DNA from: Aliivibrio fischeri ES114
Lineage (GTDB): Bacteria > Pseudomonadota > Gammaproteobacteria > Enterobacterales > Vibrionaceae
DNA length: 32,000 nt
Strand: one strand, 5' to 3'
NCBI RefSeq assembly: GCF_000011805.1
Contig: NC_006840.2
Each line of letters opens with the position of its first letter. Position 1 is the stretch's first letter. The notes under the pieces are model-generated. The model saw only the letters and a program-made list of their open reading frames with translations, did not search any database and was not told where the DNA came from. Positions 4,880 through 22,248 of this stretch are shown piece after piece. Made by a program: the position numbers and the translations under genes.

Positions 4880-4917
4880 AAAAAATAGCCCGTAACTATT
4901 CCTGGTCACGGGCTTTG
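4880..4917. terminator. Hairpin terminator, better suited to the minus-strand cyclase gene
   Basis: agcccgt (4887-4893) / acgggct (4908-4914) stem. An A-run on the + side becomes a T-run when read on the minus strand. Confidence 0.5.
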
Positions 4918-5029
4918 GGAAACGGCTCATCGCGAGCCTTGCGCTAATAATAAAATGGAAAGCATTACCTTATTTAGCGTAGTTCAAGGGCTCGTCCTGT
5001 CCAGTTTTTCTTCAGTTTATTTTCTGCAA

Positions 5030-6580
5030 TTATATATCTTGATAGTGAGTGATTTTATTACGCCCATTATGTTTTGAGTAATATAGCGCCTTATCTGCTT
5101 GTTCAATTACATCATCTAATAGTACGTTTGGTTTATTAATTGTCGTAATCCCAGCGCTCAGAGTAATGTCTTCATGAAGCGTATTATAGTTTGAGATTTG
5201 CGTACGTATTTGGTCAGTAAATTCAATCACTGACTCAATGTCATTATCTCGAATAAAAAGAATAAACTCCTCACCACCATAACGACCAGCTAATACGTTA
5301 GGGTATTGAGCCATTGTTCTACCCACGATAGCGATCACCTTATCACCAACCAAATGTCCGTAATTATCATTAATACGTTTAAAGAAATCGATATCCAATA
5401 AAATAATCGAATAGGGCTTAAATTTGTTATTACTGTTACTCGATTTTATGAGTGGCGATACCTTGTTATGAAACGTCCCACGGTTGTATAAGCCAGTTAA
5501 ATAGTCTCTATTAAGTACATTAATTAATTTTCTATGGCGATGGTTAAGTAACAACATCAAAATCAAGATTAAAGTCGTTAAGCTGATCACTAAAGTCAGC
5601 AAGCTATATAGCAATGTATTGGTTGGTTGATTTAATTCATCTCGAGAAATACCTGAAATGATCGCCCAGTCCAAATAAGGGTAATAGATAAACAACACAT
5701 CTTTTTGATACGTTTTATTATCTAAAGTAATTTGGTAAGTGTAATCCTCAATATCCATACGAGAATGATCACTTGAAGTGGTTTGGTGTTGATTCATCTG
5801 TAAATTGTACGCATGAGCAGACTGACGTATTTTTTCTAACAGTCCATCAGCGTGAGAACCAATTAAGTCACGAACATTTTCGCCTTCATAGCTAGGGTGA
5901 AGCAATAACTTACCATCTAGGTCGATGACATAGACATAACCAGTTTCACCATATTGATATTTATTTAACTTGCCTTTCAGTAAGCTTTTATCAATAAAGT
6001 GAAGAAGTTCGTCCTTATAAGCACTTGCTGATACGATAAGATCAGAATCAGGCAAGTAAACCGAGTAAGTGATTTTCTTTCTTGGCTTCTCATCTCCAGG
6101 GTTTGTCCATAAATACTCAACAAAATTATCATCATTGCCAATTTGTTGCTGAATATGCAGGTACTGGCCAACATTACGACCCTGAAAGATAGGGTGGTAC
6201 AGTAAATCCCCATTCGAGTTTAGAATGTAAGGATAGCCAGTGTCTCCAATTTTGCTGTCGTTAATATAGTCTTGTATGACTCTTTTTTTTTGCTCAGCAC
6301 TTAATACTGGAGAGTTTTGAATTTGAGAAATAAATTCAGCAGAGGTTGTCACTATGCCTTTTAAATAACGTTTGATAGATTCATTAAGTGCAGTGTCTAC
6401 AATATCGTAACTGGCTTCAATTGAGTTGTTGAATGCCTGAAAGGATGATGTTTTGATTGTTTTTTCAACAGATTTAAAGTTTTTGACACTAAACGTGAGT
6501 GAAATAGCAGCCATCCCAACCAGGAGTAAGATGATAATTGGTTGTAAGAACGATAAGCGCTGAAGACGAGATTGAGGCAT
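5030..6580 (-). CDS. Membrane sensor diguanylate cyclase (periplasmic Cache-like domain plus GGDEF)
   Basis: It has an N-terminal TM helix, a ~290-aa extracytoplasmic region with Cache-like YP/YV..D..G repeats (GDTGYPYILNSNGDLLYHP; GETGYVYVIDLDGKLLLHP), and a second TM helix. The GGDEF domain follows (RDYLTGLYNR ... GRYGGEEF). No RxxD I-site lies upstream of GGEEF. Confidence 0.85.
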   Translation of the reverse strand: MPQSRLQRLSFLQPIIILLLVGMAAISLTFSVKNFKSVEKTIKTSSFQAFNNSIEASYDIVDTALNESIKRYLKGIVTTSAEFISQIQNSPVLSAEQKKRVIQDYINDSKIGDTGYPYILNSNGDLLYHPIFQGRNVGQYLHIQQQIGNDDNFVEYLWTNPGDEKPRKKITYSVYLPDSDLIVSASAYKDELLHFIDKSLLKGKLNKYQYGETGYVYVIDLDGKLLLHPSYEGENVRDLIGSHADGLLEKIRQSAHAYNLQMNQHQTTSSDHSRMDIEDYTYQITLDNKTYQKDVLFIYYPYLDWAIISGISRDELNQPTNTLLYSLLTLVISLTTLILILMLLLNHRHRKLINVLNRDYLTGLYNRGTFHNKVSPLIKSSNSNNKFKPYSIILLDIDFFKRINDNYGHLVGDKVIAIVGRTMAQYPNVLAGRYGGEEFILFIRDNDIESVIEFTDQIRTQISNYNTLHEDITLSAGITTINKPNVLLDDVIEQADKALYYSKHNGRNKITHYQDI

Positions 6581-6690
6581 AAGATTAAAATCCTTTTAAC
6601 GGTATATGCAATTGTATTGGAAAGTATGGACTCTATCAATATGTTCTGATTTTATTCGGATTGAATGAGAAATAGACAAACGATTGATAA

Positions 6691-6733
6691 TGAAAAAAAA
6701 TTACTTGCAGACTGATTCTGAACTCGATAATAT
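6691..6733 (+). promoter_or_regulatory. Putative sigma70 promoter for the tRNA-Val pair
   Basis: A-tract (6693-6700), TTGCAG (6705-6710), 17-nt spacer, TAATAT (6728-6733), then a GC-rich cagcctcg discriminator 20 nt before the first tRNA. Pattern match only. Confidence 0.4.
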
Positions 6734-6753
6734 CAGCCTCGTTCTAAAGGAAT

Positions 6754-6830
6754 GCGTCTGTAGCTCAGTTGGTTAGAGTACTACCTTGACATGGTAGGGG
6801 TCGGTGATTCGAGTTCACTCAGACGCACCA
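6754..6830 (+). tRNA. tRNA-Val (anticodon GAC), copy 1
   Basis: 77 nt: gcgtctgtagctcagttggttagagtactaccttgacatggtaggggtcggtgattcgagttcactcagacgcacca. Cloverleaf with anticodon loop cttGACat, encoded CCA, near-identical to E. coli tRNA-Val(GAC). Confidence 0.95.
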
Positions 6831-6907
6831 TTCCTTCTGTTTGTTTTTGTCAAACAACAACTATTGATTTAGTCACAATAGGTTTTATAGAAGATTTAGA
6901 ACACAGT

Positions 6908-6984
6908 GCGTCCGTAGCTCAGTTGGTTAGAGTACTACCTTGACATGGTAGGGGTCGGTGATTCGAGTTCACTCGGACGCACCA
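6908..6984 (+). tRNA. tRNA-Val (anticodon GAC), copy 2
   Basis: Same 77-nt sequence except for positions 6 and 67 (C:G instead of U:A in the acceptor stem). Confidence 0.95.
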
Positions 6985-6998
6985 TTATTTAAACGAAG

Positions 6999-7024
6999 AA
7001 GCCCACCTAGTGTGGGCTTTTTTG
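6999..7024 (+). terminator. Rho-independent terminator after the tRNA pair
   Basis: gcccac (7001-7006) / gtgggc (7012-7017) stem followed by a T6 run. Confidence 0.75.
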
Positions 7025-7073
7025 TATCTGTGATTTGCTGTTTTATTCATTATTTTTAAAAGTAACTTTGTAA

Positions 7074-7985
7074 TTAGAAGCTATATTTCAATCCTATTGA
7101 GAGTGTGGAGTATAGATTATCTAGGCCAGCTGCATTTTCGGAAAAACTGGAATCATTTGTTTTGTTATTGACCTTTGTCATATCTGCATTGGCTTCAAAA
7201 TATCTGGTATAAGCATATTCGGTGTATAGATTCATATTTGGACCGAAGTTATAGTTATAGTTAATCGATAGAGAAACGGCATCAGAGTATTCATTACTTT
7301 TTTCATAGAAAGTAAGGTTTCTTAGGTAGTGGTTATCAACATCTTTGGCTTTAACCCAAGGGCTTAATTTTAATAAAAAACTAAACTCAGAGTTATCTAG
7401 TCTGTATTTCCCTGTTAGCCCAGCATAAAACATACCGAATTCTTGCTTATAATCAATGCCTACAACATCAGGAAAAGTTCCTACATCAGTACCGTTGTTA
7501 TATGAGTAAGTACCACCTAAATCCTCCCATTTGAATTGGTTATATTGAAATCCTCCTAAAGCGCCTATTTCGTAATTGTTTTGAATGAACAGCCAATAAG
7601 TGGTATGTAAGCTCGCTTGATAAGCTTTTTTCAAGGTTGTTTTTGGACTTATAGATATATCAGTAGGAAAATGTTGATTTTCAATGAACCAATCTCGGTC
7701 TTCCATATGGGCGTTACCATCATCGATTAATATAGACCAAAAATCACCCGTTAAAGTCCATCTTTGGTTAATATTCCAGTCCGTTTCTAATTTTATGATA
7801 GGAACATTATCGATTCTCCAATCAAGCTGACTTAGTTTTCTTCCAGTGTCGTCATATACAAGTTCTTTAGATGCTCCGTTTAAAACACCCAGCGAAAGAC
7901 CTAAAGATATATCTTTTTTATCGCTCTCAGCCATTGCTTCGGAGATTAAAACTAGGGGAGTGAGTATGAAAATTAACTGTTTCAT
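7074..7985 (-). CDS. Omptin-family outer-membrane protease (OmpT/Pla-like)
   Basis: Signal peptide, ISLGLSLGVLNGASKELVY..GRKLSQLDW (OmpT: ISLGTLSGKTKERVY..GRKVSQLDW). Catalytic pairs are retained by eye: MEDRDW (OmpT VDQDW) and KDVDNHY (OmpT DNDEHY). C-terminal GLKYSF matches OmpT GLKYTF. Confidence 0.85.
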   Translation of the reverse strand: MKQLIFILTPLVLISEAMAESDKKDISLGLSLGVLNGASKELVYDDTGRKLSQLDWRIDNVPIIKLETDWNINQRWTLTGDFWSILIDDGNAHMEDRDWFIENQHFPTDISISPKTTLKKAYQASLHTTYWLFIQNNYEIGALGGFQYNQFKWEDLGGTYSYNNGTDVGTFPDVVGIDYKQEFGMFYAGLTGKYRLDNSEFSFLLKLSPWVKAKDVDNHYLRNLTFYEKSNEYSDAVSLSINYNYNFGPNMNLYTEYAYTRYFEANADMTKVNNKTNDSSFSENAAGLDNLYSTLSIGLKYSF

Positions 7986-8409
7986 AAGTATGTTTGATAC
8001 TCCTATATTGTATATGTAAATTGGTTTTCTCGATGATGCTTTAAGAGTTCCTAATTAAGGTGGATGCCGTTTTAGCTATTTAAATGATGAAGCAAAAGGG
8101 GTGCAGAATTAGCCTTCAATTGAGAGGCATTGTAGGTTGATCTATTTTGAAGGGTAATTGTAAGAAGTTACAGGTACTGCTCTAGGGTATCTTTGTTATA
8201 TTGGTTTTATAAGTAGCAAATATAGGATACAAACATAGTAGACATTGATAAGGTGGTGTTTATTAATTTTACTGTGGATCCGTTATCTGTATAAATGCCA
8301 TAAACTCAGCAGAATCAAATGATAAAACCATTTATTACTTGTGCATACATCTTATTTTTATGACAATACTCGAAATTATTTATCAAACAGATGAAGTTGT
8401 GAGAAAAGT

Positions 8410-8841
8410 ATGAAACAGAAAAAAAGTATTATTCTGGTAGCGTCGCTAATGTCTTCGTTAGTTCTTACTGGTTGTGCGTCAAACGATGAGCTGATCGGAC
8501 AACAAAAGCAGCATGCAGAACAAATTAACACCTTAGAATCAACGGTAAGTACGCTAGAGTCTCGAGTAACAACGTTAGAGAACGAGCTACAAGCGCAAAA
8601 AGAAATAGATAAAGATATTTACCAAGAAGTAAACAAGCTAAATACAGAGCAAGGTAAATTGAAACAGCAAGCACAACAACAAGTTGAGCAAGCAGATAAG
8701 TTCTACACAATTAAACAAGATGATACGCTTTACAGCATTTCAGTAGAGTTTGGTTTAACAGTAGATGAACTACTTCAATTAAACCCAAAAATTGAAAACC
8801 CAAGACGTCTACTTATTGGACAAATCATCAACATCAAATAA
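8410..8841 (+). CDS. Lipoprotein with an Lpp-like coiled coil and a C-terminal LysM peptidoglycan-binding domain
   Basis: Lipobox LVLTGC. Heptad-like segment INTLESTVSTLESRVTTLENELQAQ. C-terminal LysM: YTIKQDDTLYSISVEFGLTVDELLQLNP...LLIGQIINI. Confidence 0.75.
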   Translation: MKQKKSIILVASLMSSLVLTGCASNDELIGQQKQHAEQINTLESTVSTLESRVTTLENELQAQKEIDKDIYQEVNKLNTEQGKLKQQAQQQVEQADKFYTIKQDDTLYSISVEFGLTVDELLQLNPKIENPRRLLIGQIINIK

Positions 8842-8860
8842 TGGTGTTAAATAAGTAACG

Positions 8861-8890
8861 AAAAGCCGCTAATCAATAGCGGCTTTTTTT
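8861..8890. terminator. Bidirectional rho-independent terminator (copy A)
   Basis: aaaagccgcta-atcaa-tagcggcttttttt: a symmetric hairpin with an A-run and a T-run. Confidence 0.8.
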
Positions 8891-8910
8891 ATGGTTTGCG
8901 GAGGTGTGGG

Positions 8911-9108
8911 TTACCTCTCTAAGGCTTCTTTAATTCGTTGCATTGCTTGAATAAGTACCTCACGAGGACAACCTAGATTTAAGCGAATAAATCCTGAACC
9001 TTCATTGCCAAACGCAATCCCCATGCTTGGAACTATCCCTGCTTCTACTAATTTTCTTTCTAGTTCTTTATCTGTTAGTCCAAGATCTCGGCAATCTACC
9101 CATGCTAA
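8911..9108 (-). pseudogene. Orphan 3'-terminal fragment (65 codons plus stop) of a PatB/MalY-type C-S lyase gene
   Basis: The minus strand reads LAWVDCRDLGLTDKELERKLVEAGIVPSMGIAFGNEGSGFIRLNLGCPREVLIQAMQRIKEALER*. This matches the C-terminus of the intact gene 13912-15084 except for G versus E at one position. An in-frame TAA lies immediately upstream and there is no start codon. Confidence 0.85.
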
Positions 9109-9614
9109 TTACTTGAGCGAGTAATAAACCGATTAATGCTTTAATAATTAACCAATTATAGGACTTATTCTGTGATTATAATCGCTGAAATAAAAGCGAT
9201 TATTTCCAGCCGATACATGTATTAGTTTCGGTATTAAAAAAATAATTGTTTTTCAGTAGGTCTGTTTTTATCTTTTCTATTTTTGAGCATATTAAATTAA
9301 CAGATTGATTTCCTGTTAATTTTTCTTTATCAATTGGAATACCATTAGAATCAATGAAGTTCTTTTTCATCTGAAGAACTAATATAAATTCTAATTGGAG
9401 CAGTGTAATAAAATAATTCTATTATCGGAAGCGATAATATTAACATTAATATTTAATATGCATTCATTCTTTTGATTTCTTAAGGTTATCTTTGACGTGA
9501 GGGGTTTTAATGAAATTATTACAATACTATAAAAGTGTGTTATTTATCACTGAAAATAAGTGTTAAGTGCGAAACTATTATTTAACAAATAATGAAAGTA
9601 GAGATGAATAGTGA

Positions 9615-10529
9615 ATGAAAAATAATGACATAAAACTATCGATTCCTAACATTAGACGTTCAAGATTAATAAATGTAATAAAATCGCATGGTTGCATCAG
9701 AATATTAGAAACTCATAATCCAATCTCAGCACTTATAGCAGAGAAAGCCAGTGCTAATGATATTGATTCTGAAGAGAATGTTGAATATCAAGGTTTTTGG
9801 TCAAGTTCATTAACTGATTCGGTAAGTCAAGGTAAGCCAGATATTGAGTTGCTTGACATTAAGAACAGAATCTCAAATATAAGCGATATATTTGAGGTAA
9901 CTTCCAAACCTCTAATTATAGATGGTGATACTGGAGGGAAAATTGAACATTTATCATTCAACATAAGGTCTCTTGAGCGACTTGGCGTGTCAGCAATTAT
10001 AATTGAAGATAAAACAGGGCTTAAGAAAAACTCATTATTAGGTAATGAGGTTGAACAGAAGCAAGATACAATAGAATCATTCTGCACAAAAATAAAAAAA
10101 GGTAAAGAATCTCAATTAACAGAAGAATTTATGATTATTGCAAGGGTTGAAAGCTTAATTCTAGATGCTGGAATGGAGGATGCATTAGAAAGAGCTTTTG
10201 CTTATAGTGAAAGTGGTGCTGACGGAATAATGATCCACAGTCGACACCAAGATGGAAAGGAAATATTTGATTTTGCGAAACAATATAGATCTAAGTATCC
10301 AGATAAGATATTAGTATGCGTACCTACTAGTTACAATGAAATAAAATTCGATGAACTTAAACAAGCTGGCTTCAATATTGTTATTTATGCAAATCACATG
10401 CTAAGAGCAGCATATAAGGCTATGGAATATACATCTGAGCAAATACTTAAAAATGGAAGAACATCTGAAATAGAATCTCACTTTCTATCAATAAAAAGAA
10501 TGCTAGATCTCGTGCCTGGAACTCGGTAA
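9615..10529 (+). CDS. pepM: Phosphoenolpyruvate phosphomutase (PepM), isocitrate lyase/PEP mutase superfamily
   Basis: Collinear by eye with Mytilus PEP mutase: ETHN (EAHN), WSSSLTDS (WGSGLSVS), DGDTGG (DADTGYG), IIIEDKTGLKKNS (CLEDKLFPKTNS), ARVE, GADGIMIHSR (GADAILMHSK), VPT, YANHMLRA (WANHNLRA). The PepM-diagnostic EDKX5NS motif lies at aa 131-140 (nt 10005-10034). Confidence 0.8.
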   Translation: MKNNDIKLSIPNIRRSRLINVIKSHGCIRILETHNPISALIAEKASANDIDSEENVEYQGFWSSSLTDSVSQGKPDIELLDIKNRISNISDIFEVTSKPLIIDGDTGGKIEHLSFNIRSLERLGVSAIIIEDKTGLKKNSLLGNEVEQKQDTIESFCTKIKKGKESQLTEEFMIIARVESLILDAGMEDALERAFAYSESGADGIMIHSRHQDGKEIFDFAKQYRSKYPDKILVCVPTSYNEIKFDELKQAGFNIVIYANHMLRAAYKAMEYTSEQILKNGRTSEIESHFLSIKRMLDLVPGTR

Positions 10530-11818
10530 TGCTTATGTCTATATTTATATTAACATTAATGATTTTATCTCTAATATATAAGAGAAAATACATACCTTTG
10601 ATTTTTATATTGTTAGGGATTGTTGTTTCCTTGTTTAATGGCGTAGAATTACGAGAAATCGCTTTAAACTTCTCTAATGCATTAAGCTCTGTTTTTTTAT
10701 CTATCGGGTTAAATATTGTTGTTATTATAGCGTTCTCTGAATATGTTAATAAAAATGGGGCAACAAAAGATTTAGTTTTACTCGTTTATAAACCAATAAG
10801 TAAAATAAAAGATAGATACTTAATCCTTGCTATGTTTTATTTAATAGGATTAGCATTAAGCACAGTAATCACATCCGCATCAGCTCTATCTATGATATAT
10901 ATGTCTACTGTATTCCCTATACTGATATCTAAGGGAATAAGTAAAGAAGGTGCAGCGGGAATGATCGCTTCAGTTGGAGTAATAGAATTTGGTCACTTAA
11001 AATCGAGTACTATTTTTATGGCTGAAGAGCAAAATAGATTAATAAATGATTATGTTATTAATGGACAATTATTTTTATTTATTGGTATCGCTATTGTCGG
11101 TGCAATTAGCCATTACTTCTGGCAACGTTACCTCGATAACCGTTTGACTAATGATAACGATGAAAAATCATTAACAGATAATCTAGATTATCAGCATAAA
11201 ATCAGTATATTTACGGCACTGCTACCGTTACTTCCGCTATTTCTTATTTTACCTGAACATCTATTCACTAAACTAAACTTGCCACTTTGGACTATTGGGA
11301 TGATATGTATTTCAATCTCGTTTATTTTAGATCTAAAATCCAATAAATTTAATGTTAAAGAACAATTATCTTTCTTTTTAACTAGCATTAGTAACTCATT
11401 TTTCTTTATCGTATCTGTCATTGTTGGCGGTAAATTTCTAGTCAATTCGTTACCGATAGAAAGTATTATTAATATTTATAGCCATATGTCTTTAGGTTCT
11501 ATAAACCCGATTATTTTATCATCAGTATTATTATTGGCTATCGTGTTATTTTGTACTTTGCTTGGTTCTGGAACGGTCTCTTTTATTACAATAACGTCAA
11601 TAATGTCAAAATTTAAAATCGTATCGATGAATCAGTTCAGTTCAACATTTACATCGATGCAAATGATATCAGGAATAGGAAGAACAATATCCCCTGTATC
11701 TCCAACTACATTATTATGCTCCCAAATTTCTGGAGTTACACTATCTAGCATAATATTAAGAAATATTGTCCCAACCATACTTATTGTAATTTTATCAATC
11801 ATATACAGCAATATTTGA
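10529..11818 (+). CDS. DcuC-family (C4-dicarboxylate anaerobic carrier-like) membrane transporter
   Basis: Polytopic 429-aa ORF. AFSEYVNKNGATKDLV..KP...YLILAMFYLIG.ALSTVITSASAL..IYMSTVFPILISKGISKEGAAGMIAS matches E. coli DcuC GFAAYMTHIGANDMVV..KP...YLLMIAAYFVACLMSLAVSSATGL..LLMATLFPVMVNVGISRGAAAAICAS. Also AISHYFWQRYLDNR (AIAHFFWQRYLDKK) and GRTISPVS (GRTLSPVS). The start overlaps the pepM stop (TAATG). Confidence 0.75.
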   Translation: MLMSIFILTLMILSLIYKRKYIPLIFILLGIVVSLFNGVELREIALNFSNALSSVFLSIGLNIVVIIAFSEYVNKNGATKDLVLLVYKPISKIKDRYLILAMFYLIGLALSTVITSASALSMIYMSTVFPILISKGISKEGAAGMIASVGVIEFGHLKSSTIFMAEEQNRLINDYVINGQLFLFIGIAIVGAISHYFWQRYLDNRLTNDNDEKSLTDNLDYQHKISIFTALLPLLPLFLILPEHLFTKLNLPLWTIGMICISISFILDLKSNKFNVKEQLSFFLTSISNSFFFIVSVIVGGKFLVNSLPIESIINIYSHMSLGSINPIILSSVLLLAIVLFCTLLGSGTVSFITITSIMSKFKIVSMNQFSSTFTSMQMISGIGRTISPVSPTTLLCSQISGVTLSSIILRNIVPTILIVILSIIYSNI

Positions 11819-11826
11819 GGTTAGTT

Positions 11827-12831
11827 ATGAATAAATACGTGATCATTCTGGAAGCTAGTGAAGATAAAAATAAGGATGATACTGGCTTTAGAAAAGATAC
11901 AGCACCGATAATTAAAGCCGTTCAAGATATAGGTATCAATTGTAAAGCTATACATTTCACACTAAGTGAAAAGGATAAAATATTTGATTTTATGAGAAAA
12001 AATTGCGTAGCTTACATATCAAGAGTTAACCCGGGGAAATTAACTACTGGGGAACAAACCTATTTTGATTTCTTAGATAATCTTATTGATGAAGGAATAG
12101 TAGGAATAGAACCCCCAAGTACTTTATTAGCGCTTGGTTCTAAGTCATCGCTCTGTAAGTTAGTAGGTACAGGATTGGTTCCTGATGACATGAGAATATA
12201 TAAAGACAAAAAAGAACTCATTGAAGATTTTGATATTGAAAGTCTGAATTCTGATAGGGTTTTTAAACAAAATAGAGGTTCTAGCGGAAAAGGCATTTTC
12301 AGATTAGGTCTCGTTGATAGCTCAGCATCAAAGATAAGAGTGACCGATGCACAAAATAACCGAACACAGAATATACATATAAATGATTTTATTGATAATT
12401 ATGTTAACTTTGATTCAGGCGTTGTTGTTAATATGCCATTTTTATCTGGAATCAAAGAGGGTGAGTATCGTGTTCTCTTGATTGGCAATACCCCATGCTA
12501 TGTTATTCATAAAAAACCGACAAAAGGTGATTTTAACTTTTCTACGACCTTGCACTCAGGTTCAGAATATAAATATGAAGATGTGTCCAAACATCCTATT
12601 TTGATTGATCTTGTTACTAATAACATTGAGACAATCCTAACAAAGCTAAATGACTCAAGACCTGCGCCATTAATTTGGAGTATTGATTTTATAAGGGATA
12701 TGAAAAATGACAAATTCCTTATATCAGAAATAAACTGTAATTGTCTTGGTTTCACATCATTATTGGATTCGGACATTCCTAAACTAATGGCTGACATGAT
12801 ATATAACCGAATTTATCATGAACATAATTAG
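11827..12831 (+). CDS. ATP-grasp fold ligase, RimK/glutathione-synthetase-like
   Basis: VFKQNRGSSGKGIF (P-loop-like, compare RimK KP..GSGGRGV), EYRVLLIGNTPCYVIHKKP (RimK DIRCLVVGDEVV), DFNFSTTLHSGSEY (RimK DFRSNLHRGG) and SIDFIRDMKNDKFLISEINCNC (Mg/ATP-binding E-x-N). ATG 11827 with GAGG 7 nt upstream is preferred over the track TTG at 11815. Confidence 0.6.
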   Translation: MNKYVIILEASEDKNKDDTGFRKDTAPIIKAVQDIGINCKAIHFTLSEKDKIFDFMRKNCVAYISRVNPGKLTTGEQTYFDFLDNLIDEGIVGIEPPSTLLALGSKSSLCKLVGTGLVPDDMRIYKDKKELIEDFDIESLNSDRVFKQNRGSSGKGIFRLGLVDSSASKIRVTDAQNNRTQNIHINDFIDNYVNFDSGVVVNMPFLSGIKEGEYRVLLIGNTPCYVIHKKPTKGDFNFSTTLHSGSEYKYEDVSKHPILIDLVTNNIETILTKLNDSRPAPLIWSIDFIRDMKNDKFLISEINCNCLGFTSLLDSDIPKLMADMIYNRIYHEHN

Positions 12832-12840
12832 GAGCGAAGA

Positions 12841-13788
12841 ATGAAAGTTTCATACTATGAAGTAAAAGAACGATTAATAAGAAAATTCATAGCTTCAGGA
12901 TTGGCTTGGGATGATGCAAATTGGGTTACTGATGTTTTAATTTCTTCAGAGCAACGCGGTGATAAATCCCACGGGATAAAACATGCAAAGAATATATTTG
13001 ATGTGATTAATAGTGAATGTTATATAGCACAGGCTCCTATTATTCATGATGAAAGGTCAATAACGATACTGGATGGACAGAATTCTATAGGACCAATAGT
13101 AGCGAAACAGGCTATTGATATAGCAATAAAAAAAGCGAAGAAATATGGAACAGCAGCAATATCTTTACGTTCATCAAATCATTTATTTTCATTAAGTCAT
13201 TACGTTAGATATATAGCTAACAATAATATGATTGGTTTTATATGCAGTAGTAGCTCCCCCGCAATGGCTGCTCCAAACTCATTAAATGCCACAATTGGGA
13301 CTAACCCATTTGCATTCGGAGCACCATCATCAAAAGATCCCATAGTCATAGATATGAGTTCGACAAATGTTGCACGAGGAAAAATAAAAGAATATAAGGA
13401 TGCGGAATTAGATATTCCAGTATCTTGGGCATTGGATGAATATGGAAATCCAACCACTTGCGCAATTGAGGCACTTAAAGGCACTTTATCTCCATTGGGA
13501 GGTTATAAAGGTTTTGCTTTAGGCTGTATGATCGATATATTCAGTTCAGTATTGTCTGGTTCTGCTTTTTCGACGCAGATTACAGGTACAAGTCTTCATA
13601 TGGAAGAGGCTGATGTAAATAAGAAAGGAGATTTTTTATTTGTCCTCGATATCAGCAAGTTTATTCAATTAAGTGAGTTTAAAATTCGTATGGATGAATT
13701 TATTCACATTATAGAAAGTAATGGTGGGTATATTCCAGGAACCAATTATATCAATAATCAGTTCGCTGATATAGAAATACTGAATTGA
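12841..13788 (+). CDS. Ldh_2-family NAD(P)H-dependent oxidoreductase (malate / (R)-2-sulfolactate / ureidoglycolate dehydrogenase family)
   Basis: Family landmarks by eye: RGDKSHGI, SNHLFSLSHY, IGTNPFAFGAPS, IDMSSTNVARGKI, SWALDEYGNPT, LSPLGGYKGFALGCMIDIFSSVLSG. A strong AGGAG lies 6 nt upstream of the ATG. Confidence 0.8.
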   Translation: MKVSYYEVKERLIRKFIASGLAWDDANWVTDVLISSEQRGDKSHGIKHAKNIFDVINSECYIAQAPIIHDERSITILDGQNSIGPIVAKQAIDIAIKKAKKYGTAAISLRSSNHLFSLSHYVRYIANNNMIGFICSSSSPAMAAPNSLNATIGTNPFAFGAPSSKDPIVIDMSSTNVARGKIKEYKDAELDIPVSWALDEYGNPTTCAIEALKGTLSPLGGYKGFALGCMIDIFSSVLSGSAFSTQITGTSLHMEEADVNKKGDFLFVLDISKFIQLSEFKIRMDEFIHIIESNGGYIPGTNYINNQFADIEILN

Positions 13789-13861
13789 TGAGTGGGGACT
13801 GAACGATGAGAATTAACTTACTGGGTATAGTAAGAAATAGATCAAATAGTGGCATGATGAT

Positions 13862-13891
13862 AAAAAGCCGCTAATTAATAGCGGCTTTTTT
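13862..13891. terminator. Bidirectional rho-independent terminator (copy B), serving the cassette operon (+) and the C-S lyase gene (-)
   Basis: aaaaagccgcta-attaa-tagcggctttttt. Confidence 0.8.
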
Positions 13892-14109
13892 ATGGTTTGT
13901 GGATGTGTGGATTATCTCTCTAAGGCTTCTTTAATTCGCTGCATCGCTTGAATAAGTACCTCTCGAGGGCAACCTAGATTTAAACGAATAAAGCCTGAAC
14001 CTTCGTTGCCAAACGCAATCCCCATGCTTGGAACTATCCCAGCTTCTACTAATTTACGCTCTAGTTCTTTATCTGTTAGTTCAAGATCTCGGCAATCTAC
14101 CCATGCTAA
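13863..14109. repeat. Direct repeat copy B (terminator plus 3' end of the intact C-S lyase gene)
   Basis: See copy A. This copy is contiguous with the complete ORF 13912-15084. Confidence 0.9.
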
Positions 14110-15084
14110 ATAACCCGCTTCTGGTGGGGTAAAGCGTAGCTCTGGCAGTTCGCTTTCAATAAAAGTTGCTAAGGTAGTAATGTTCTCTTGTAAGTAGGTT
14201 TTAAGTTCGTTTAACCACGGTGCTGAAGTTTGATAAGCAGCAGTGGCAGCACACATCGCCAAGCTATTATAAACATCCATGCCATGCGCATCTAAACGAC
14301 GAACTAAACGTGCTTTTAATTCTTGATTTGGGATCATGAAATTAGAAATACGTACAGAAGACAAGCCGAATGTTTTACTCGCTGCCGTTGCTACAATCAG
14401 TTTTTGTTGTAGATTCTCTGGCAATGATAATGCTGAATGGTAAGTGTTATCTCCCATCGCTAAATCGCCCCAGATCTCATCACTTAGTAGCCACACATCG
14501 TATTGATGACATAGCTCTGCTACAGCGGTTATCTCTTCTTTTGACCATGCTTTACCAACAGGGTTGTGAGGGTTACAGAAGATCATTACTTTAGCGCCTT
14601 GCTGAAAACAAGATTCTAAATGAGCAAGGTCGATAGTGTAGTTTCCTTGCTGCTCAATTAATGGGTTCTCAACCAATACTCGGTCATTAAATTCAACGAT
14701 TTTACGAAACGAGCCATAGCCCGGTGTTTGCATTACCACTTTGTCATTGGTTTCAGTCAGTAGCTGAATTGCCATTGAAAGCCCAGGTAATACGCCGTGT
14801 ACGGTTGTTATCCATTCTTTTTCAATGTGAATATGATGCTGCTCTTGATACCAAGTGATGATCGCTTGGTAGTAGTCATCATTACGTTCTGCATAACCAA
14901 AAATACCATGGTCAATGCGATTATGAAGTGCTTCTAATACGTGTGGTGGCGCTTGAAAATCGTAATCAGACACCCACATAGGTAGTCGGTCTGTGCCATC
15001 TAATCCGAGTTTTTCTTTCATGAAATCCCATTTTAATGAGCCTGTGTTACAACGGTTGTGAATGCAGTCAAAAGAAGTTGTCAT
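13912..15084 (-). CDS. PLP-dependent C-S lyase / cystathionine beta-lyase, PatB/MalY subfamily of class I aminotransferases
   Basis: NRCNTGSLKWD, PMWVSDYDFQAP, GIFGY, CNPHNPVGKAWSKEE and AASKTFGLSSVR (PLP-lysine motif SKTF) are typical of MalY/PatB. Confidence 0.85.
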   Translation of the reverse strand: MTTSFDCIHNRCNTGSLKWDFMKEKLGLDGTDRLPMWVSDYDFQAPPHVLEALHNRIDHGIFGYAERNDDYYQAIITWYQEQHHIHIEKEWITTVHGVLPGLSMAIQLLTETNDKVVMQTPGYGSFRKIVEFNDRVLVENPLIEQQGNYTIDLAHLESCFQQGAKVMIFCNPHNPVGKAWSKEEITAVAELCHQYDVWLLSDEIWGDLAMGDNTYHSALSLPENLQQKLIVATAASKTFGLSSVRISNFMIPNQELKARLVRRLDAHGMDVYNSLAMCAATAAYQTSAPWLNELKTYLQENITTLATFIESELPELRFTPPEAGYLAWVDCRDLELTDKELERKLVEAGIVPSMGIAFGNEGSGFIRLNLGCPREVLIQAMQRIKEALER

Positions 15085-15093
15085 GAGATAGCC

Positions 15094-16551
15094 TTATTTT
15101 ACGTCAACTGGAGATAGTGAGTCGTTGTCTTGAGTTACTGGTGCTTTTGCAATACCAAAGCCTGTGAAACCATAAATGATGGCGAAAATCACGCCGGTGT
15201 AACATTGAATTGCCCATGGGAGGTAATCAAGCGTTGCTACGCCTAATGTGCTTGCCATGTAAATACCTGCTGCAGTCCACGGAACCAGTGGTTCGATAAT
15301 GGTGCCCGCATCTTCAATAGTTCTTGAAAGGTTTTTAGTGTCCAATCCCATTTTGCGATAAGCATTTTGGAATAATTCACCTGGGATTAATAAGGCAAGT
15401 TTGCCATCAGAGGTTGTGAATACCACGGTAATCGTAGCAATCACAGTTGATAGAATTAACTGACCAGTGCTGTGAATAAGATGTAAGAAGCGGCCTAGAA
15501 CCACATTTAATGCACCTGTTAGACTTAAAATTCCCGCAAAAGCAAAGGCACAAAATACAAGAAGAATGGTGCTCATCATAGAGAACAGGCCACCACGATT
15601 AAGCAGTTTTGCAATATCTGGAACTAAACCATCTGTTGTGTGACCGTTAGTGTTCAACATATCGATATTGAAACCATTAACAAACGCTTGCAGTGCTTGT
15701 TGTAAGCTGAAGCCTTGTAGAAATACACCGATAAGTAGAGCAAGGGCAGAGGCTGCAAGCATCAGAGGAAGTACTGGTTTTTTCGTGAATGCGCCCCATA
15801 AGATCATGATTGGTGGCACAATTAATAGAATGCTGAAGTTATATAAACTGTCCAAGCCAGCAATGATATCAACTACTTTTTGAGGTTCGCTCACATTTGT
15901 AATATCACCGTATTGACCAGCAAAGAAGAAGACAACAGAAGCAATAACAAAGCCTGGTAGCGTGGTATAAAGCATATGTTGGATGTGTTCATATAATGTA
16001 GTGCCAGAAACAATAGGTGCAAAATTTGTTGAATCAGAAAGAGGGGAGATTTTATCACCAAAGTAAGCGCCAGAAACCACCGCGCCAGCAGCTGCCGCCA
16101 AGGATACGTCAAGACCTGCTGCTACACCCATTAACGCAACACCTACTGTTCCTGCAGATCCCCATGATGTACCAGTACACACAGAAACCACACTGGTAAC
16201 AAAGAAAGCAGCGATTAAAATATATTGAGGGCTAATAACTTTTAATCCCCAATAAACCATGTAGGGGATAGTGCCACTGATCATCCAACTTGCGATTAGG
16301 CCGCCAACCGACACTAAAATTAAGATAACTGGCATTGCTTTCGCCAGTTTCTCAACAATGGCGTTCATTATCTCATCCCAGTTGTATCCCATTTTATATG
16401 CAATAAAACCAGTGAAGGTTGCTGAAGTAAGTAGTAGTGCTTCAATTTGTAGACCAAATAGGCCATATCCAATTGCCAGTAGACCAAACATTACAGCAAT
16501 AGGAGCTATTGCTAATGCAAAGGATGGAAGAGGCTTTGATGAATGTGTCAT
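15094..16551 (-). CDS. NhaC-family transporter (Na+/H+ antiporter fold; the family also contains amino-acid and organic-acid carriers)
   Basis: 485 aa, 11 or more TM segments. It carries GTSWGSAGTVGVALMG and GAYFGDKISPLSDSTN motifs characteristic of NhaC. It ends 9 nt before the lyase start, which suggests an operon. Confidence 0.85.
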   Translation of the reverse strand: MTHSSKPLPSFALAIAPIAVMFGLLAIGYGLFGLQIEALLLTSATFTGFIAYKMGYNWDEIMNAIVEKLAKAMPVILILVSVGGLIASWMISGTIPYMVYWGLKVISPQYILIAAFFVTSVVSVCTGTSWGSAGTVGVALMGVAAGLDVSLAAAAGAVVSGAYFGDKISPLSDSTNFAPIVSGTTLYEHIQHMLYTTLPGFVIASVVFFFAGQYGDITNVSEPQKVVDIIAGLDSLYNFSILLIVPPIMILWGAFTKKPVLPLMLAASALALLIGVFLQGFSLQQALQAFVNGFNIDMLNTNGHTTDGLVPDIAKLLNRGGLFSMMSTILLVFCAFAFAGILSLTGALNVVLGRFLHLIHSTGQLILSTVIATITVVFTTSDGKLALLIPGELFQNAYRKMGLDTKNLSRTIEDAGTIIEPLVPWTAAGIYMASTLGVATLDYLPWAIQCYTGVIFAIIYGFTGFGIAKAPVTQDNDSLSPVDVK

Positions 16552-16559
16552 TTTGTATT

Positions 16560-16598
16560 CCTCATAAAAAGTTGTAGGGTTGTTTTGTTTTTATGAGG
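16560..16598 (-). promoter_or_regulatory. 5'-UTR hairpin whose 3' arm contains the NhaC-gene Shine-Dalgarno
   Basis: The minus strand reads cctcataaaaa-(17 nt)-tttttatgagg-aatacaaa-ATG. It has perfect 11-bp arms (16588-16598 and 16560-16570), and GAGG lies 8 nt from the start codon. Confidence 0.4.
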
Positions 16599-16647
16599 TC
16601 ATAATAAGAGTTCTATTAATTAGAATATGAGAGACAGGTAACGCACT

Positions 16648-16665
16648 CATGTAAGCGCTTACATG
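16648..16665. promoter_or_regulatory. LacI/GalR-type operator (perfect 18-bp palindrome)
   Basis: catgtaagc|gcttacatg. The core TGTAAGCGCTTACA fits the LacI-family consensus TGTAA-CG-TTACA. It sits in the 136-bp gap between the LacI-family gene and the NhaC/C-S lyase genes. Confidence 0.6.
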
Positions 16666-16687
16666 AAGTTCTTACCTAAGATGCTCA

Positions 16688-17710
16688 TCACACTTTTAGG
16701 GCTTGTTTATTTGAAAAAGGTATAACAGTTTGTCGCTCGACCAAGCTGGCATTAAAGCGATGATTAGATGGTGGAACATAACCGGTGTTTTTTATTTTTA
16801 ATGCTAAATCAGCAGCATAGCTCGACATTTCATCAATAGGATTGTGCATTGTGGTTAAGCGTGGGTAGAGATATCGAGCCAATAAAACATCGTCAAACCC
16901 AATAATAGAAATATCGTCTGGAACACGAATATTATTTTCATGCAGGCTTGCCATTAAACCTGCGGCCATTACATCGTTAAAGGTAACCACAGCAGTGACT
17001 TCTGGGCATTGAAACAATAATTGTTCACCGGCAAGTTCTCCGCCTTGTTCGCTAAAGTTCTGATTTATTATCCAGTTAGGTTCAATGGTAATGTTGGCTT
17101 CTGCCATAGCATCGCGGTAACCGTTAAGTCGCTCTGTTCTGTCTTCAATAGGAAGATCACTGGTGACACAGGCGATTTTGCGGTGACCTTGCTTAATTAA
17201 GTAAACAACAGATTCTTTGGCACCAGCTCTATTATCAATATAGACAGAACGATTTGAGATTTGTGGAATGGTACGGTTGAGCAATACCATCGAAGGGAGT
17301 TGAGCGCTGTATCGTAATAGGGTGGCATCATCTAGCATTTTGGCGTGAACCACCATGGCTTCACATCCTTGACTGATTAAAAAATCCAACCCTTCTTTTT
17401 CTCGCTGTGCATCATGACCTCCGCTTACTACTACTAATTGGCATTTATGTTTACGTGCGACTTCTTCTACGTGTTTGGCTATTAGGGCAAAGAAAGGATC
17501 AGCTAGGTTGCCGGTTAGTAGGCCAAGGGTATTATTTGTTTTTTTTGCTAAGGCACTGGCTCTTGCATCGCGCTGATAATTGAGTTCACGAATGGCACTT
17601 TGTACTCGTTCAAGAGTTACCGGCTCAACATAAGCGGAGTTATTGATTACGCGGGAAACGGTAGCGGTAGAAACTCTTGCTAACTTTGCAACGTCACTGA
17701 TTGTCGCCAT
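16688..17710 (-). CDS. LacI-family transcriptional regulator
   Basis: N-terminal HTH MATISDVAKLARVSTATVSRVINN followed by a periplasmic-binding-protein-like sugar-binding core. Confidence 0.9.
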   Translation of the reverse strand: MATISDVAKLARVSTATVSRVINNSAYVEPVTLERVQSAIRELNYQRDARASALAKKTNNTLGLLTGNLADPFFALIAKHVEEVARKHKCQLVVVSGGHDAQREKEGLDFLISQGCEAMVVHAKMLDDATLLRYSAQLPSMVLLNRTIPQISNRSVYIDNRAGAKESVVYLIKQGHRKIACVTSDLPIEDRTERLNGYRDAMAEANITIEPNWIINQNFSEQGGELAGEQLLFQCPEVTAVVTFNDVMAAGLMASLHENNIRVPDDISIIGFDDVLLARYLYPRLTTMHNPIDEMSSYAADLALKIKNTGYVPPSNHRFNASLVERQTVIPFSNKQALKV

Positions 17711-17913
17711 GATGACTACTTATGGTGATTAACATTGAGTCAGAGTGTAGCGCGGATTTTTCGATAAAGATGTTAGAACTATCAAATTCTGTGGAGCATG
17801 CCGTTTATAATTACCTTCTTATTAATAGTCTTAAATATTTAATACATCATTCATTTATCTCATTGTATTATCTGATTGAGCACAAGGGTGTGCAGTATTA
17901 TTTAAGGTTGGAT

Positions 17914-18906
17914 ATGTTTAAAAATAAATTAGCAGTGTTATTTACGTGTTTGTCTGTTTTTTCTTTTTCGGCTCAATCTGGGAGTTTTGATACCGTTACG
18001 TTAGGGAGTAAAGGTGGGATCCAAGATGGTAATTTAACGGCTTTTTTAATTAAAAGTGAGGCGGATTCTAATTTTGTTATGCTTGATGCAGGCTCTGTTG
18101 TTAATGGATTAATTGTTTCAGAGCAGAAAGGAGCGTTTAAAGATATTACCGTGCCAGACAGTTCTCCTTACACCAAAGTAGGTTACCTATTAAAGGATAA
18201 GATTAAGGGTTACTTTATCAGCCATGCTCATTTAGATCATGTTGCCGGTTTAATTATCTCTTCTCCTGATGACAGTAAAAAACCGATATATGGATTAGCA
18301 GCGACAAATAAAGATCTCATGAAGAATTACTTTAATTGGTCAGCATGGCCTAATTTTGGTAACAAAGGTGAAGGCTTTAAACTGAACAAATACAATTATG
18401 TGGATCTTCAACCGGGCGTTTGGAGTCCGATAGCTGAAACAACAATGAGTGTGATGTCATTGCCTTTGTCTCATTCTGGTGGGCAATCTACGGTATTTAT
18501 TCTAAAAGACAGTGAAGGGGATGTATTTGCTTATTTTGGTGATACAGGGCCAGATGAAGTAGAGAAAAGTTCGGCAATGAAAACGGCGTGGTCTGCTTTA
18601 GCTCCTTTTGTAAAACAAGGGAAGTTAAAGGGGATTATTATTGAAGTTTCTTTTACCAACGAAACCCCAGATAAATCTTTATTTGGACATTTAACGCCAA
18701 ACTGGTTAGTTAAAGAATTAAGTGTGCTTGAAGACATGAATGGCAAGGGTTCTTTAAATGATCTAAATGTAGCCATCAGTCACATCAAATACAGCTTAAA
18801 GAACAGTGAAGATCCTAAAGTAATTATTAAAAAGCAGTTAGCAGAAGCAAATGACTTAGGTGTAAATTTCATTTTTCCTGAGCAAGGTGATTCACTGCAG
18901 TTTTAA
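17914..18906 (+). CDS. cpdP: Periplasmic 3',5'-cyclic-nucleotide phosphodiesterase, class II (CpdP)
   Basis: Signal peptide MFKNKLAVLFTCLSVFSFSAQS. The class II PDE signature H-x-H-L-D-H-[LIVM]-x-G-L-I-I-S-S-P is present as HAHLDHVAGLIISSP. The protein matches my recollection of V. fischeri CpdP. ATG 17914 is preferred over the track start at 17722. Confidence 0.85.
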   Translation: MFKNKLAVLFTCLSVFSFSAQSGSFDTVTLGSKGGIQDGNLTAFLIKSEADSNFVMLDAGSVVNGLIVSEQKGAFKDITVPDSSPYTKVGYLLKDKIKGYFISHAHLDHVAGLIISSPDDSKKPIYGLAATNKDLMKNYFNWSAWPNFGNKGEGFKLNKYNYVDLQPGVWSPIAETTMSVMSLPLSHSGGQSTVFILKDSEGDVFAYFGDTGPDEVEKSSAMKTAWSALAPFVKQGKLKGIIIEVSFTNETPDKSLFGHLTPNWLVKELSVLEDMNGKGSLNDLNVAISHIKYSLKNSEDPKVIIKKQLAEANDLGVNFIFPEQGDSLQF

Positions 18907-18923
18907 AAAAGTTATTGTAAAAA

Positions 18924-18953
18924 TGGATATGGTCAATACAAAGACCATATCCA
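18924..18953. terminator. Hairpin between convergent cpdP and the lipoprotein gene
   Basis: tggatatggtc / gaccatatcca 11-bp stem. A T-run follows it when read on the minus strand (tttttac). Confidence 0.5.
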
Positions 18954-18977
18954 CTCCACGCATTTGTTTTTTATCTC

Positions 18978-20900: not shown

Positions 20901-21209
20901 AATATATAATTCTATTTTAATTAATATAAATATATGTGCTGTTTTGTAATCAAACAGCGTTATTATCGACATGCTACATTAAGGCTATTATTTATAAGTG
21001 CCTTTTAGTGAATAGTATTTCATAAGTGAAATGAATGCTAGATATAAATCACTTAACTTAATGAATGTAAAAGTAATTAAAAAATGATAATACAAAACAT
21101 TTTTGTATATTTAATTATTAAGAGGTTTAAGGGTAAGGTAGTTACCATTGAATTCATCATGAGGATAAATTCTTTATTAGAGCGAATACCTCTGACGATA
21201 GTTTAAAAA

Positions 21210-21225
21210 TGTGATATCTTTCACA
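21210..21225. promoter_or_regulatory. Consensus CRP (cAMP receptor protein) binding site
   Basis: aaaa-TGTGA-tatctt-TCACA-aaat: both pentamers are perfect with a 6-nt spacer. It sits 26-41 nt upstream of the yciA start. Confidence 0.55.
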
Positions 21226-21250
21226 AAATTATTTTGTATGGAGAATCGTT

Positions 21251-21661
21251 TTGAGAACTGAATTAAACACTAACCAAACACCAAAAGGGCAGCTACTTCT
21301 TCGAACTCTTTCTATGCCAGCAGATACTAATGCTAATGGTGATATTTTTGGTGGTTGGATTATGTCTCAGCTTGATTTAGCTGGTGCAATTTTAGCTCAA
21401 GAAATCTCTGGTGGACGTATTGTAACGGTTTCAGTATCTAGCATTACGTTTAAAAAACCAGTGAAAGTGGGTGATGTGGTTTGTTGCTATGGTGAATGTA
21501 CAAAAGTAGGGCGAACTTCAATGTCGATAGATTTGGAAGTGTGGGTTAAACCAATTAAAGAGGACGAAGTAAGTCACCGTTTCCAAGTGTGTGAAGCAAC
21601 TTTTAATTACGTAGCAATTGACTCAAACGGAAAACCGCGCGCAATTCCAAAGCACTCTTAA
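21251..21661 (+). CDS. yciA: Acyl-CoA thioesterase, YciA type (hotdog fold)
   Basis: LLLRTLSMPADTNANGDIFGGWIMSQLDLAGAILAQEI..GR.VTV....ITF.KPV.VGDVVCCY is nearly identical in pattern to E. coli YciA. TTG start with GGAGA upstream. Confidence 0.85.
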   Translation: MRTELNTNQTPKGQLLLRTLSMPADTNANGDIFGGWIMSQLDLAGAILAQEISGGRIVTVSVSSITFKKPVKVGDVVCCYGECTKVGRTSMSIDLEVWVKPIKEDEVSHRFQVCEATFNYVAIDSNGKPRAIPKHS

Positions 21662-21727
21662 TGGGAATTGGTCTTAAGTAGAGCTTACACATGCAAGGGT
21701 GATCTCTGTTTAACATCAAAAAAGAAC

Positions 21728-21762
21728 AGCCTGCTCAATGAAAATTGAGTAGGCTATTTTTT
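21728..21762 (+). terminator. Rho-independent terminator of yciA
   Basis: agcctgctcaat / attgagtaggct 12-bp stem (one G-U pair), gaaa loop, T6 run. Confidence 0.75.
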
Positions 21763-21802
21763 ATCTATAATAGGTTATCTATAATCGGTTATCTATCATA
21801 GG
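21761..21802. repeat. Three tandem 14-bp direct repeats
   Basis: ttatctataatagg / ttatctataatcgg / ttatctatcatagg. The last unit overlaps the stop codon of the minus-strand DUF417 gene. Confidence 0.9.
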
Positions 21803-22248
21803 TGTGGTTTATTATGCTCAATCACAAGTAGTGATACAGAGATAAACACAATGTCTTTAAGTAAAAAGAAGTTGGTTGTTAATACGCCATCAACGACTTT
21901 CCATGTATTCGGTGTGGTTGCTAAGAAGCTAAGTGTCGCAATAAATGTAAGTAAGGCAAGGATCCCTGAATAGTAACCAATTTTAGGGTTAAAGAAGCCT
22001 GCGATAAGTCCTATTGCAATCACAATTTCAGTCAAGCCAATGATATTAGATACCATTTGTACTGACATAAATCCGTATATCCAGCCCATTAAAGGGTGGT
22101 TTGCAACTAACGGTTCGATAGCTGCCGCTTCTGTTGGGGTAAATTTAAAAATACCTATCCAAAGTAGGGTAAGTACGACACCAAAGACACCAATTTTATA
22201 ACCTAATGACGTTTCTGCTGAGATGGCTTTACAAGTTTGAGTATTCAT
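21796..22248 (-). CDS. DUF417 (YkgB/RclC-like) inner-membrane protein
   Basis: LWIGIFKFTPTEAAAIEPLVANHPLMGWIY and IATLSFLATTPNTW..LLKD resemble E. coli RclC/YkgB as I recall it (WIGLLKFVPYEADSITPFVANSPLMSFFY; LVTLSFLITTPEAW). Four predicted TM helices. Confidence 0.65.
   Translation of the reverse strand: MNTQTCKAISAETSLGYKIGVFGVVLTLLWIGIFKFTPTEAAAIEPLVANHPLMGWIYGFMSVQMVSNIIGLTEIVIAIGLIAGFFNPKIGYYSGILALLTFIATLSFLATTPNTWKVVDGVLTTNFFLLKDIVFISVSLLVIEHNKPHL

Follow-up and report, generated by a model that had tools for sequence, protein, structure and literature searches.

A metabolic cassette between two alleles of one lyase gene end in Aliivibrio fischeri ES114

Introduction

The described systems closest to the locus analysed here are Campbell integration of a non-replicating circle, homology-facilitated illegitimate recombination (HFIR), orphan 3' ends at toxin and effector loci, and islands at gene 3' ends. 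The locus lies in a 32,000-nucleotide (nt) stretch of the Aliivibrio fischeri ES114 genome (NCBI RefSeq assembly GCF_000011805.1, contig NC_006840.2), referred to below as the window. There, direct repeats of a PatB/MalY-type C-S lyase gene's 3' end stand on either side of a phosphonate-type metabolic cassette of four genes, one of them for a phosphoenolpyruvate (PEP) mutase. Copy A, on the left, is an orphan fragment, and copy B, on the right, is the end of the working gene.

In Campbell integration, as at this locus, the insert lies between direct repeats of the homology segment and the target gene stays intact; the repeats are predicted to be reciprocal chimeras, and excision between them makes the event reversible. 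Unlike the usual case, the homology here is only 248 bp long and 7% diverged, and the unit, which is no plasmid or phage, appears to have been made by an illegitimate joint within a larger island, its circular form being putative. The predicted chimerism has support at 12 of 13 sites for each parent, yet it is not unique in a mosaic population.

HFIR during natural transformation has been described in Acinetobacter, Streptococcus pneumoniae and Pseudomonas stutzeri (summarised in PMC3240628). It shares with the present locus one homologous and one illegitimate junction, with foreign DNA captured beside a conserved anchor. It differs in that the captured DNA here carries its own anchor neighbourhood, giving a 248-bp duplication and not the usual deletion. 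Microhomology joints are typical of HFIR, and natural competence is known for Vibrio species, V. fischeri included.

For the orphan 3' ends and immunity arrays at Rhs, contact-dependent inhibition (CDI) and type VI secretion system (T6SS) effector loci, a displacement model has been proposed in Vibrio cholerae (PMC5361080). As at our locus, a module recombines through a conserved gene segment and displaces the old 3' part without a dedicated recombinase. In contrast, what is displaced here is the end of a housekeeping-type pyridoxal phosphate enzyme gene with its terminator, the cargo is a metabolic operon and not a toxin/immunity pair, and there is one orphan and no array. Islands at the 3' ends of tRNA, tmRNA and protein-coding genes likewise leave the gene intact, with the old end on the far side and flanking direct repeats, whereas the integrase and short attachment core that define them are absent here. 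The event described below is of an ordinary, known kind; it is a new, well-resolved example, and no new mechanism.

Results

Divergence of the two copies under selection

The direct repeats are spaced by 5001-5002 nt. Over 248 columns their identity is 92.7%, the mismatches being 17 substitutions and a single-nucleotide indel within the T-run of the terminator; the coordinates and the ~93% identity of an earlier reading made from the letters alone (the sequence-only reading) were right. The homology can be extended by 3 nt more, to 9111/14112, with one mismatch. Each copy comprises a bidirectional terminator hairpin, a 22-nt spacer, the stop codon and the final 65 lyase codons, and the differences are scattered along the entire 248 bp, terminator loop included. 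Copy A is truncated and untranslatable; in the lyase frame a TAA codon stands immediately before the fragment. The repeat features are as follows.

8861-9108, minus strand: copy A, the orphan lyase fragment, with the stop codon at 8911-8913 and codons at 8914-9108
9005-9039, unstranded: stretch S in copy A, 35 nt, the longest run identical in A and B and the likely crossover zone
13863-14109, minus strand: copy B, in which the working lyase gene ends, with a terminator stem that adjoins the cassette on its right
14006-14040, unstranded: stretch S in copy B, the same 35-nt identical run

We found 13 nucleotide differences in 12 codons of the 65-codon part. Eleven of these codons are synonymous (an AGA/CGT arginine pair included) and one is a Gly/Glu exchange, an exact match on recount to the figures of the sequence-only reading. 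A Nei-Gojobori comparison of A with B, in which the AGA/CGT pair was path-averaged, gave 11 synonymous and 2 non-synonymous differences (Sd 11, Nd 2), with dS 0.293, dN 0.0135 and Fisher P 1.9e-6; the dN/dS ratio, which had been proposed as a check, came to 0.046. The same reading had argued that neutral decay after a local duplication should leave mostly non-synonymous changes. A null of ~77% non-synonymous changes is too generous for this purpose, because only the orphan would drift after an in-situ duplication, which lowers the expectation to ~38%. Under this null, with one selected and one drifting copy, decay is still rejected (P = 0.017 for at most one non-synonymous change among 13). 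Local duplication with neutral decay of the orphan has nothing in its favour beyond copy A being truncated and untranslatable; with one non-synonymous codon in 12 and zero changes private to copy A, it is ruled out to the point that we give it practically no chance.

The same lyase segment was then taken from intact genes of other A. fischeri strains for comparison. Pairwise dS among eight intact alleles was 0.13-0.42 (mean 0.28), and the value for A against B falls within this range. Every state of copy A, at 13 of 13 coding and 5 of 5 non-coding sites, was found in the intact lyase gene of some other strain. Private substitutions numbered none in copy A and two in copy B, both non-coding. 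Since the A states are all present in intact genes, the differences are polymorphisms older than the rearrangement. Judged by these sequences, A and B are two different natural conspecific alleles of the lyase 3' end. The second allele is therefore not "xenologous", as had been supposed, its divergence lying inside the A. fischeri range.

Among strains, the lyase alleles themselves show dN/dS of 0.03-0.08. The low ratio between the copies, together with A states standing in intact genes, confirms that the differences arose under purifying selection in separate lineages and not by decay in situ. The same reading had also proposed that the acquisition depended on homology, with no integrase or transposase, and this agrees with the annotation: no integrase, transposase or terminal inverted repeat was found by Pfam and NCBIfam in the window interval or in the related 7-gene island described below. 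We are almost certain of a divergence shaped by selection, each copy in its own lineage, and of a homology-driven acquisition.

Independent support for the duplication

The L-numbers used here are labels for the public contigs and loci that were compared with the window. Most short-read (Logan) contigs break at stretch S, among them L079, L080 and L082 in copy A and L105 with 21 similar contigs in copy B. We considered and rejected an assembly artefact as the source of the duplication, since all four edges are backed by independent public assemblies. The passage from the lipoprotein gene, which borders the site on the left, into the left part of A is spanned by L079, L080 and L082; the right part of A, the joint and the cassette up to the left part of B by L098, L102 and L104; and the cassette through copy B into the lyase body by L089.

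The orphan, by position, as the displaced resident end

Distance was uninformative for telling the native from the imported copy, whether measured to other species or to conspecific alleles, as the two are about equally far; against other species, A has 24-31 and B has 23-32 differences in 177 nt. The surroundings of the copies are informative. From the lipoprotein gene through the terminator and spacer into the left part of A, 72 of 72 intergenic nt are identical to the cassette-free (empty) sites L117 and L120, and the copy A terminator is identical to the single terminator of these two sites. The junction of the copy B terminator with the right end of the cassette is absent from empty sites. 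Because the left part of A has the empty-site configuration, the orphan is by position mostly (over its larger left portion) or wholly the displaced resident gene end, and the present end of the working gene is imported. The sequence-only reading, which took the orphan to be the acquired piece, had the polarity largely backwards, given that the left part of B sits at the novel cassette junction. It was correct that the resident lyase gene stays intact, the complete 3' end having come in with the insert.

A variable site with a composite island

The empty site predicted for cassette-free relatives (lipoprotein gene, terminator, lyase gene) exists. In L106-L115 (the complete genome CP092712.1 included), L117-L119 and L120-L121, the lipoprotein gene is followed by a ~70-nt spacer with one terminator and then by the lyase gene, and the site appears empty in A. 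finisterrensis L003 too. In L095 (at 4885-15473), L096 and L122 the site holds a 7-gene island, made of module 1 (rpiR/SIS, dcuC and pepT) and then module 2, which encodes PEP mutase, a DcuC-like carrier, a Cj0069-family ATP-grasp protein and an Ldh_2 dehydrogenase. L097 has module 2 beside the same lyase end as these, and its contig starts too near the PEP mutase gene to display module 1; L001 has module 2 only, module 1 having been deleted between the T-runs of two terminators. Module 1 with an EamA gene and without module 2 occurs in at least one other Aliivibrio species (L004), and L020 (11170-19900) has a similar layout of open reading frames (ORFs). A further Aliivibrio, L002, carries an unrelated 8-kb set of sugar and phosphotransferase system genes at the site. 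Across Aliivibrio, the spacer between the lipoprotein and lyase genes is a hot spot, and the state with module 2 alone was reached by two independent routes.

The window holds module 2 only, in the 4.75 kb between its repeats. The cassette is therefore not the self-contained unit that it had been taken for: in other strains this spacer holds a composite island of seven genes, of which the cassette makes up the right-hand module. Module 2 has 98.1-98.9% identity among four strains, compared with 92-97% in the flanking core genes, which fits a spread of the cassette more recent than that of its flanks.

Homology to the 7-gene island of L095, L096 and L122 starts exactly at 9109, so 9108/9109 is an illegitimate joint, and the left edge of the cassette is, on its sequence, a microhomology joint. 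Its 20-mer occurs only in window-type contigs among the loci compared. The joint is also the end-to-start joint that a tandem duplication of a 5001-bp unit would have.

9103-9111, unstranded: illegitimate joint of lyase codon 325/326 with the pepT-PEP mutase (pepT-ppm) spacer; TGCT at 9103-9106 and TA at 9110-9111 are common to both parents, in register

Two types of lyase end

All empty A. fischeri sites sampled have a type-1 lyase end, '...EALER' or '...EAFER', with a window-like spacer. The five island-bearing strains sampled all have a type-2 end, '...VALSS', with another spacer and another terminator loop; the other Aliivibrio species compared have a lyase ending the same as or similar to '...VALSS'. 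In the sampled strains the end type and the empty or island-bearing state are perfectly associated, with the window as sole exception: its module 2 lies between two type-1 ends (8911-8929 and 13912-13930). The 31-nt type-1 spacer and tail, sought elsewhere for its origin, was present in type-1 alleles only.

A block of seven sites just outside copy B also sets the window apart. Some of its states match other Aliivibrio species, and L117-like sequence resumes from about 14239; the block could be a small piece of imported DNA in its own right or the last stretch of what came in with the cassette.

14172-14221, minus strand: 7-site block, mostly third codon positions, at which the window differs from the other A. 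fischeri alleles compared; 2 of the 7 states recur in L120

In a separate observation on the type-1 terminator, L116 (GCA_001690925.1 contig end, 9215-9232) has it broken right after the loop, and the contig stops 18 nt on. The inserted sequence had no match in any compared locus or in the window. This suggests another insertion inside the terminator, possibly of a repeated element.

Possible chimerism of the copies and mode of entry

A and B are told apart by 13 coding sites, over which the empty-site allele L117 reads aabaaaaaabbbb; 12 of the 13 follow a pattern that is A-like on the left and B-like on the right (P 0.019 in a one-breakpoint permutation). The empty-site allele L120 reads abbbbbbbbaaaa, or B-left with A-right, again at 12 of 13 (P 0.020), and links rare B-left states (13963 T, 13984 A) to rare A-right states (GAA AGA, Gly). 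No allele resembling the whole of copy B was present among those sampled. With a natural allele thus agreeing with each of the two reciprocal chimeras at 12 of 13 sites, a Campbell-type single crossover inside the lyase 3' end would fit best, and we put the chance that it is right at about even.

According to this model, module 2 in a donor lineage, with the adjoining terminator and lyase end, would have become a 5.0-kb unit closed by the 9108/9109 joint, either as a circle or, equivalently, as one repeat of a tandem duplication. A single reciprocal crossover by homology within 9004-9055 (14005-14056 in B), most likely in the 35-nt identical stretch S, would then have brought the unit into a chromosome with an empty site. 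No integrase would be needed, and entry by natural transformation is plausible. Copy A would consist of the resident gene end on the left and 55-105 nt of imported sequence on the right, and the working lyase gene would now end in imported codons and an imported terminator. The repeats would permit precise loss of the cassette by homologous recombination.

An allele of the kind such a loss would leave is found in three public read-set assemblies in all. The contig L081 (run ERR868086), which occurs in two samples, links the omptin and lipoprotein genes to A-left, S and B-right, and in L092 (run ERR868070) a full-length lyase gene ends in A-left. The two match the window minus 9021-14021 at 100% identity, over 2535 nt and 1482 nt respectively, and the identity takes in the hypervariable omptin-lipoprotein spacer and the window-unique block. 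Other low-coverage contigs within L089-L093 cross S on the true path.

Several points weigh against Campbell-type entry. The population is a mosaic in which all four left/right combinations exist, and in L122, which bears the island, 9 of the 11 sites that can be compared agree with copy A along its whole length. Applied to the first six alleles, a majority-state test gave no significant sign of chimerism, and a clear pattern emerged only with the later L117 and L120. The donor required by every scenario, with module 2 beside a type-1 'EALER' end, was not found among the strains sampled. The unique block at 14172-14221 is better explained by an imported tract running past the repeat, and the strain closest to the window on both flanks, at ~1%, is the island-bearing L001, which vertical inheritance of module 2 would fit. 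No circular form of the 5.0-kb unit was seen. Finally, the precise-excision allele that had been predicted is seen in L081 and L092, and both contigs may be de Bruijn artefacts, as S is the only shared run of at least 31 nt, where a k=31 graph could switch path. Campbell integration, which the sequence-only reading had favoured, is thus the best fit and not the sole model compatible with the map: one-step HFIR yields the same map, and the alleles are too mosaic to tell the two apart.

In the HFIR alternative, an empty-site recipient would have taken up linear DNA of an island-bearing donor that chance breakage had cut, on the left, within the pepT-ppm spacer; this DNA would have crossed over by homology in the lyase body right of 14109 (near 14235) and had its free end joined to codon 325/326 by microhomology. 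Copy A would then be the recipient's entire old gene end, and copy B with some of the lyase body would be donor DNA. A single event in the recipient would suffice, and the process is described in naturally competent bacteria (PMC3240628) and proposed for Vibrio orphan arrays (PMC5361080). The in-register TGCT and TA at the joint speak for it, as do the acquisition of just half of the composite island, cut at an arbitrary intergenic point, the window-unique block directly past the repeat with L117-like sequence after it, and L122, which shows that a whole-A-like haplotype exists. Nevertheless, neither a whole-B allele nor a type-1 whole-A allele was sampled, while both Campbell parents were, at 12 of 13 sites. 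The geometry would be unusual too, as the illegitimate joint would fall within sequence to which the incoming anchor is homologous, and this model likewise needs an unsampled donor in which module 2 adjoins a type-1 end. We therefore regard HFIR as a serious candidate that is unlikely to be the right one. An improbable third route starts from an island-bearing backbone, in which empty-site DNA would have recombined on the lipoprotein side and its broken lyase end would have joined the pepT-ppm spacer illegitimately; module 1 would have been deleted, the donor lyase end left as the orphan, and the working type-1 end supplied by a separate allelic replacement. The closeness of the window to L001, ~1% on both flanks and in the cassette, is what it would predict, module 1 loss recurs (L001 lost it independently), and the orphan and lipoprotein side match empty-site strains. 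It needs two separate events, however, one of them crossing over within a terminator stem of ~10 nt, and the cassette identity of 98-99% is equal for all strain pairs and gives no specific vertical signal.

The exact end-to-start character of the 9108/9109 joint would be explained by an in-situ tandem duplication of 9109-14109 in an island-bearing ancestor, followed by deletion of module 1 and the first cassette copy and by replacement of one end with a foreign allele through ordinary homologous recombination. Allelic replacement is rampant at the locus, which helps this account; three events are needed, no intermediate form occurs in any strain compared, and differences over the whole 248 bp would require a replacement tract that ended exactly at the cassette-side repeat boundary, so we rate it a shade less probable even than the island-bearing backbone. 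Far less credible is an integrative element that targets the lyase 3' end and brings a replacement end, or a transposon insertion. The map does resemble 3'-end islands, in which the target gene survives insertion and its former end is pushed aside. Against this, the window interval and the 7-gene island hold none of the integrase, transposase or terminal inverted repeats expected, the left edge lies inside the composite island and not at an attachment core site, and repeats of 248 bp that are 93% identical do not qualify as a target-site duplication. Integrase, transposon and inverted-repeat models were rejected accordingly, there being no recombinase gene and no short target-site duplication; all cassette and island ORFs are annotated as metabolic or regulatory, and the only inverted repeats located at the ends are terminator hairpins.

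Genes of the cassette

The cassette encodes PEP mutase, with a profile score above the cut-off, and between 9615 and 13788 it encodes no phosphonopyruvate decarboxylase.

9109-9614, plus strand: AT-rich region upstream of the cassette genes (GC content 0.24-0.30), in which no Rfam family reaches its gathering score
9615-10529, plus strand: phosphoenolpyruvate mutase gene (TIGR02320 equivalog, 430.1 bits against a cut-off of 319.55; Pfam PEP_mutase)
10529-11818, plus strand: DcuC-family transporter gene, from domain and family profile matches
11815-12831, plus strand: gene for a Cj0069-family/DUF6815 ATP-grasp protein (NF033816, 389 bits; PF20668)
12841-13788, plus strand: Ldh_2-family dehydrogenase gene, with best matches to sulfolactate dehydrogenase models, below their cut-offs

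These partners suggest that phosphonopyruvate is reduced to phosphonolactate, which is then ligated; a symbiont of squid or fish would thus have a short phosphonate pathway of an unusual kind. A search of the literature for a V. fischeri PEP mutase or such a pathway found nothing relevant. The leader at 9400-9600, upstream of the PEP mutase start, has 18-21 differences per 200 nt against L001, L095 and L122, compared with 0-9 per 200 in the coding part, and the lineage of the window may have undergone a remodelling of the cassette's promoter or leader.

Flanking genes, terminators and recombination tracts

The site is bordered by the following features.

8410-8841, plus strand: LysM lipoprotein gene (Pfam LysM), the left border of the variable site, which adjoins the lyase gene in the empty sites L106-L115 and L117-L121
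8861-8889, unstranded: copy A terminator hairpin (term1), the bidirectional terminator of the lipoprotein gene, found on both strands (-17.2 and -16.4 kcal/mol)
13912-15084, minus strand: intact PatB/MalY-type C-S lyase gene, 390 aa (TIGR04350, 409.2 bits against a cut-off of 340)

The lyase protein has 99% identity to that of A. fischeri strain emors.2.1 and is named MalY/PatB family protein by NCBI. Both terminator copies fold as bidirectional hairpins of -16 to -18 kcal/mol on either strand, and the two-strand scan and the folding bear out the bidirectional terminator that had been placed at the end of the cassette operon. A search of the repeat and the cassette leader for known RNAs or riboswitches in Rfam gave only sub-threshold matches, driven by the terminator.

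On the lyase side, at 14410-16300, the antiporter gene and the lyase gene's 5' half share ~99.2-99.7% identity with L001. Over most of 16400-19000 the window is 3-8% different from all sampled strains, and beyond 19200 (19200-22000) it is >99.5% identical to L117-L120. The flank reads as a patchwork of recombination tracts. On the other side, the omptin-lipoprotein spacer at 8000-8400 is hypervariable, with ~75 differences per 400 nt against L117 and L120 and only 2 against L001. At ~6830-6945, in the gap between the GGDEF and omptin genes, many independent short-read contigs begin at 6945 and L079 has a discontinuity at 6832-6907, which suggests a small repeat or indel polymorphism between these genes. 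Elsewhere in the window, 28400-30068 contains a UmuD-like ORF (135 aa) followed by ORFs of 236 and 131 aa; recognised from the ORF list, the latter two read like the N- and C-terminal parts of UmuC, and we presume a disrupted umuC.

Discussion

A broader possibility is that small metabolic cassettes of Vibrionaceae move between strains as recombinase-free units, with the 3' end and terminator of a neighbouring gene as homology handle, Campbell entry after transformation and exit by looping out. We consider this rather unlikely. If it were true, cassettes could dock reversibly in the spacer between the lipoprotein and lyase genes, and the contigs that join A-left to B-right would stem from genuine excision.

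The locus offers a clean, checkable case of a flexible-genome cassette that entered without mobile-element enzymes, in which the flanking gene ends preserve the parental alleles. Codon-level comparison of flanking repeats, combined with alleles from the population, can separate recombinational import from local duplication and decay. In the lineage of the window, a squid-symbiont model in wide use, the PEP mutase cassette can probably be lost by recombination between its repeats, and such loss could create unnoticed differences between laboratory stocks.

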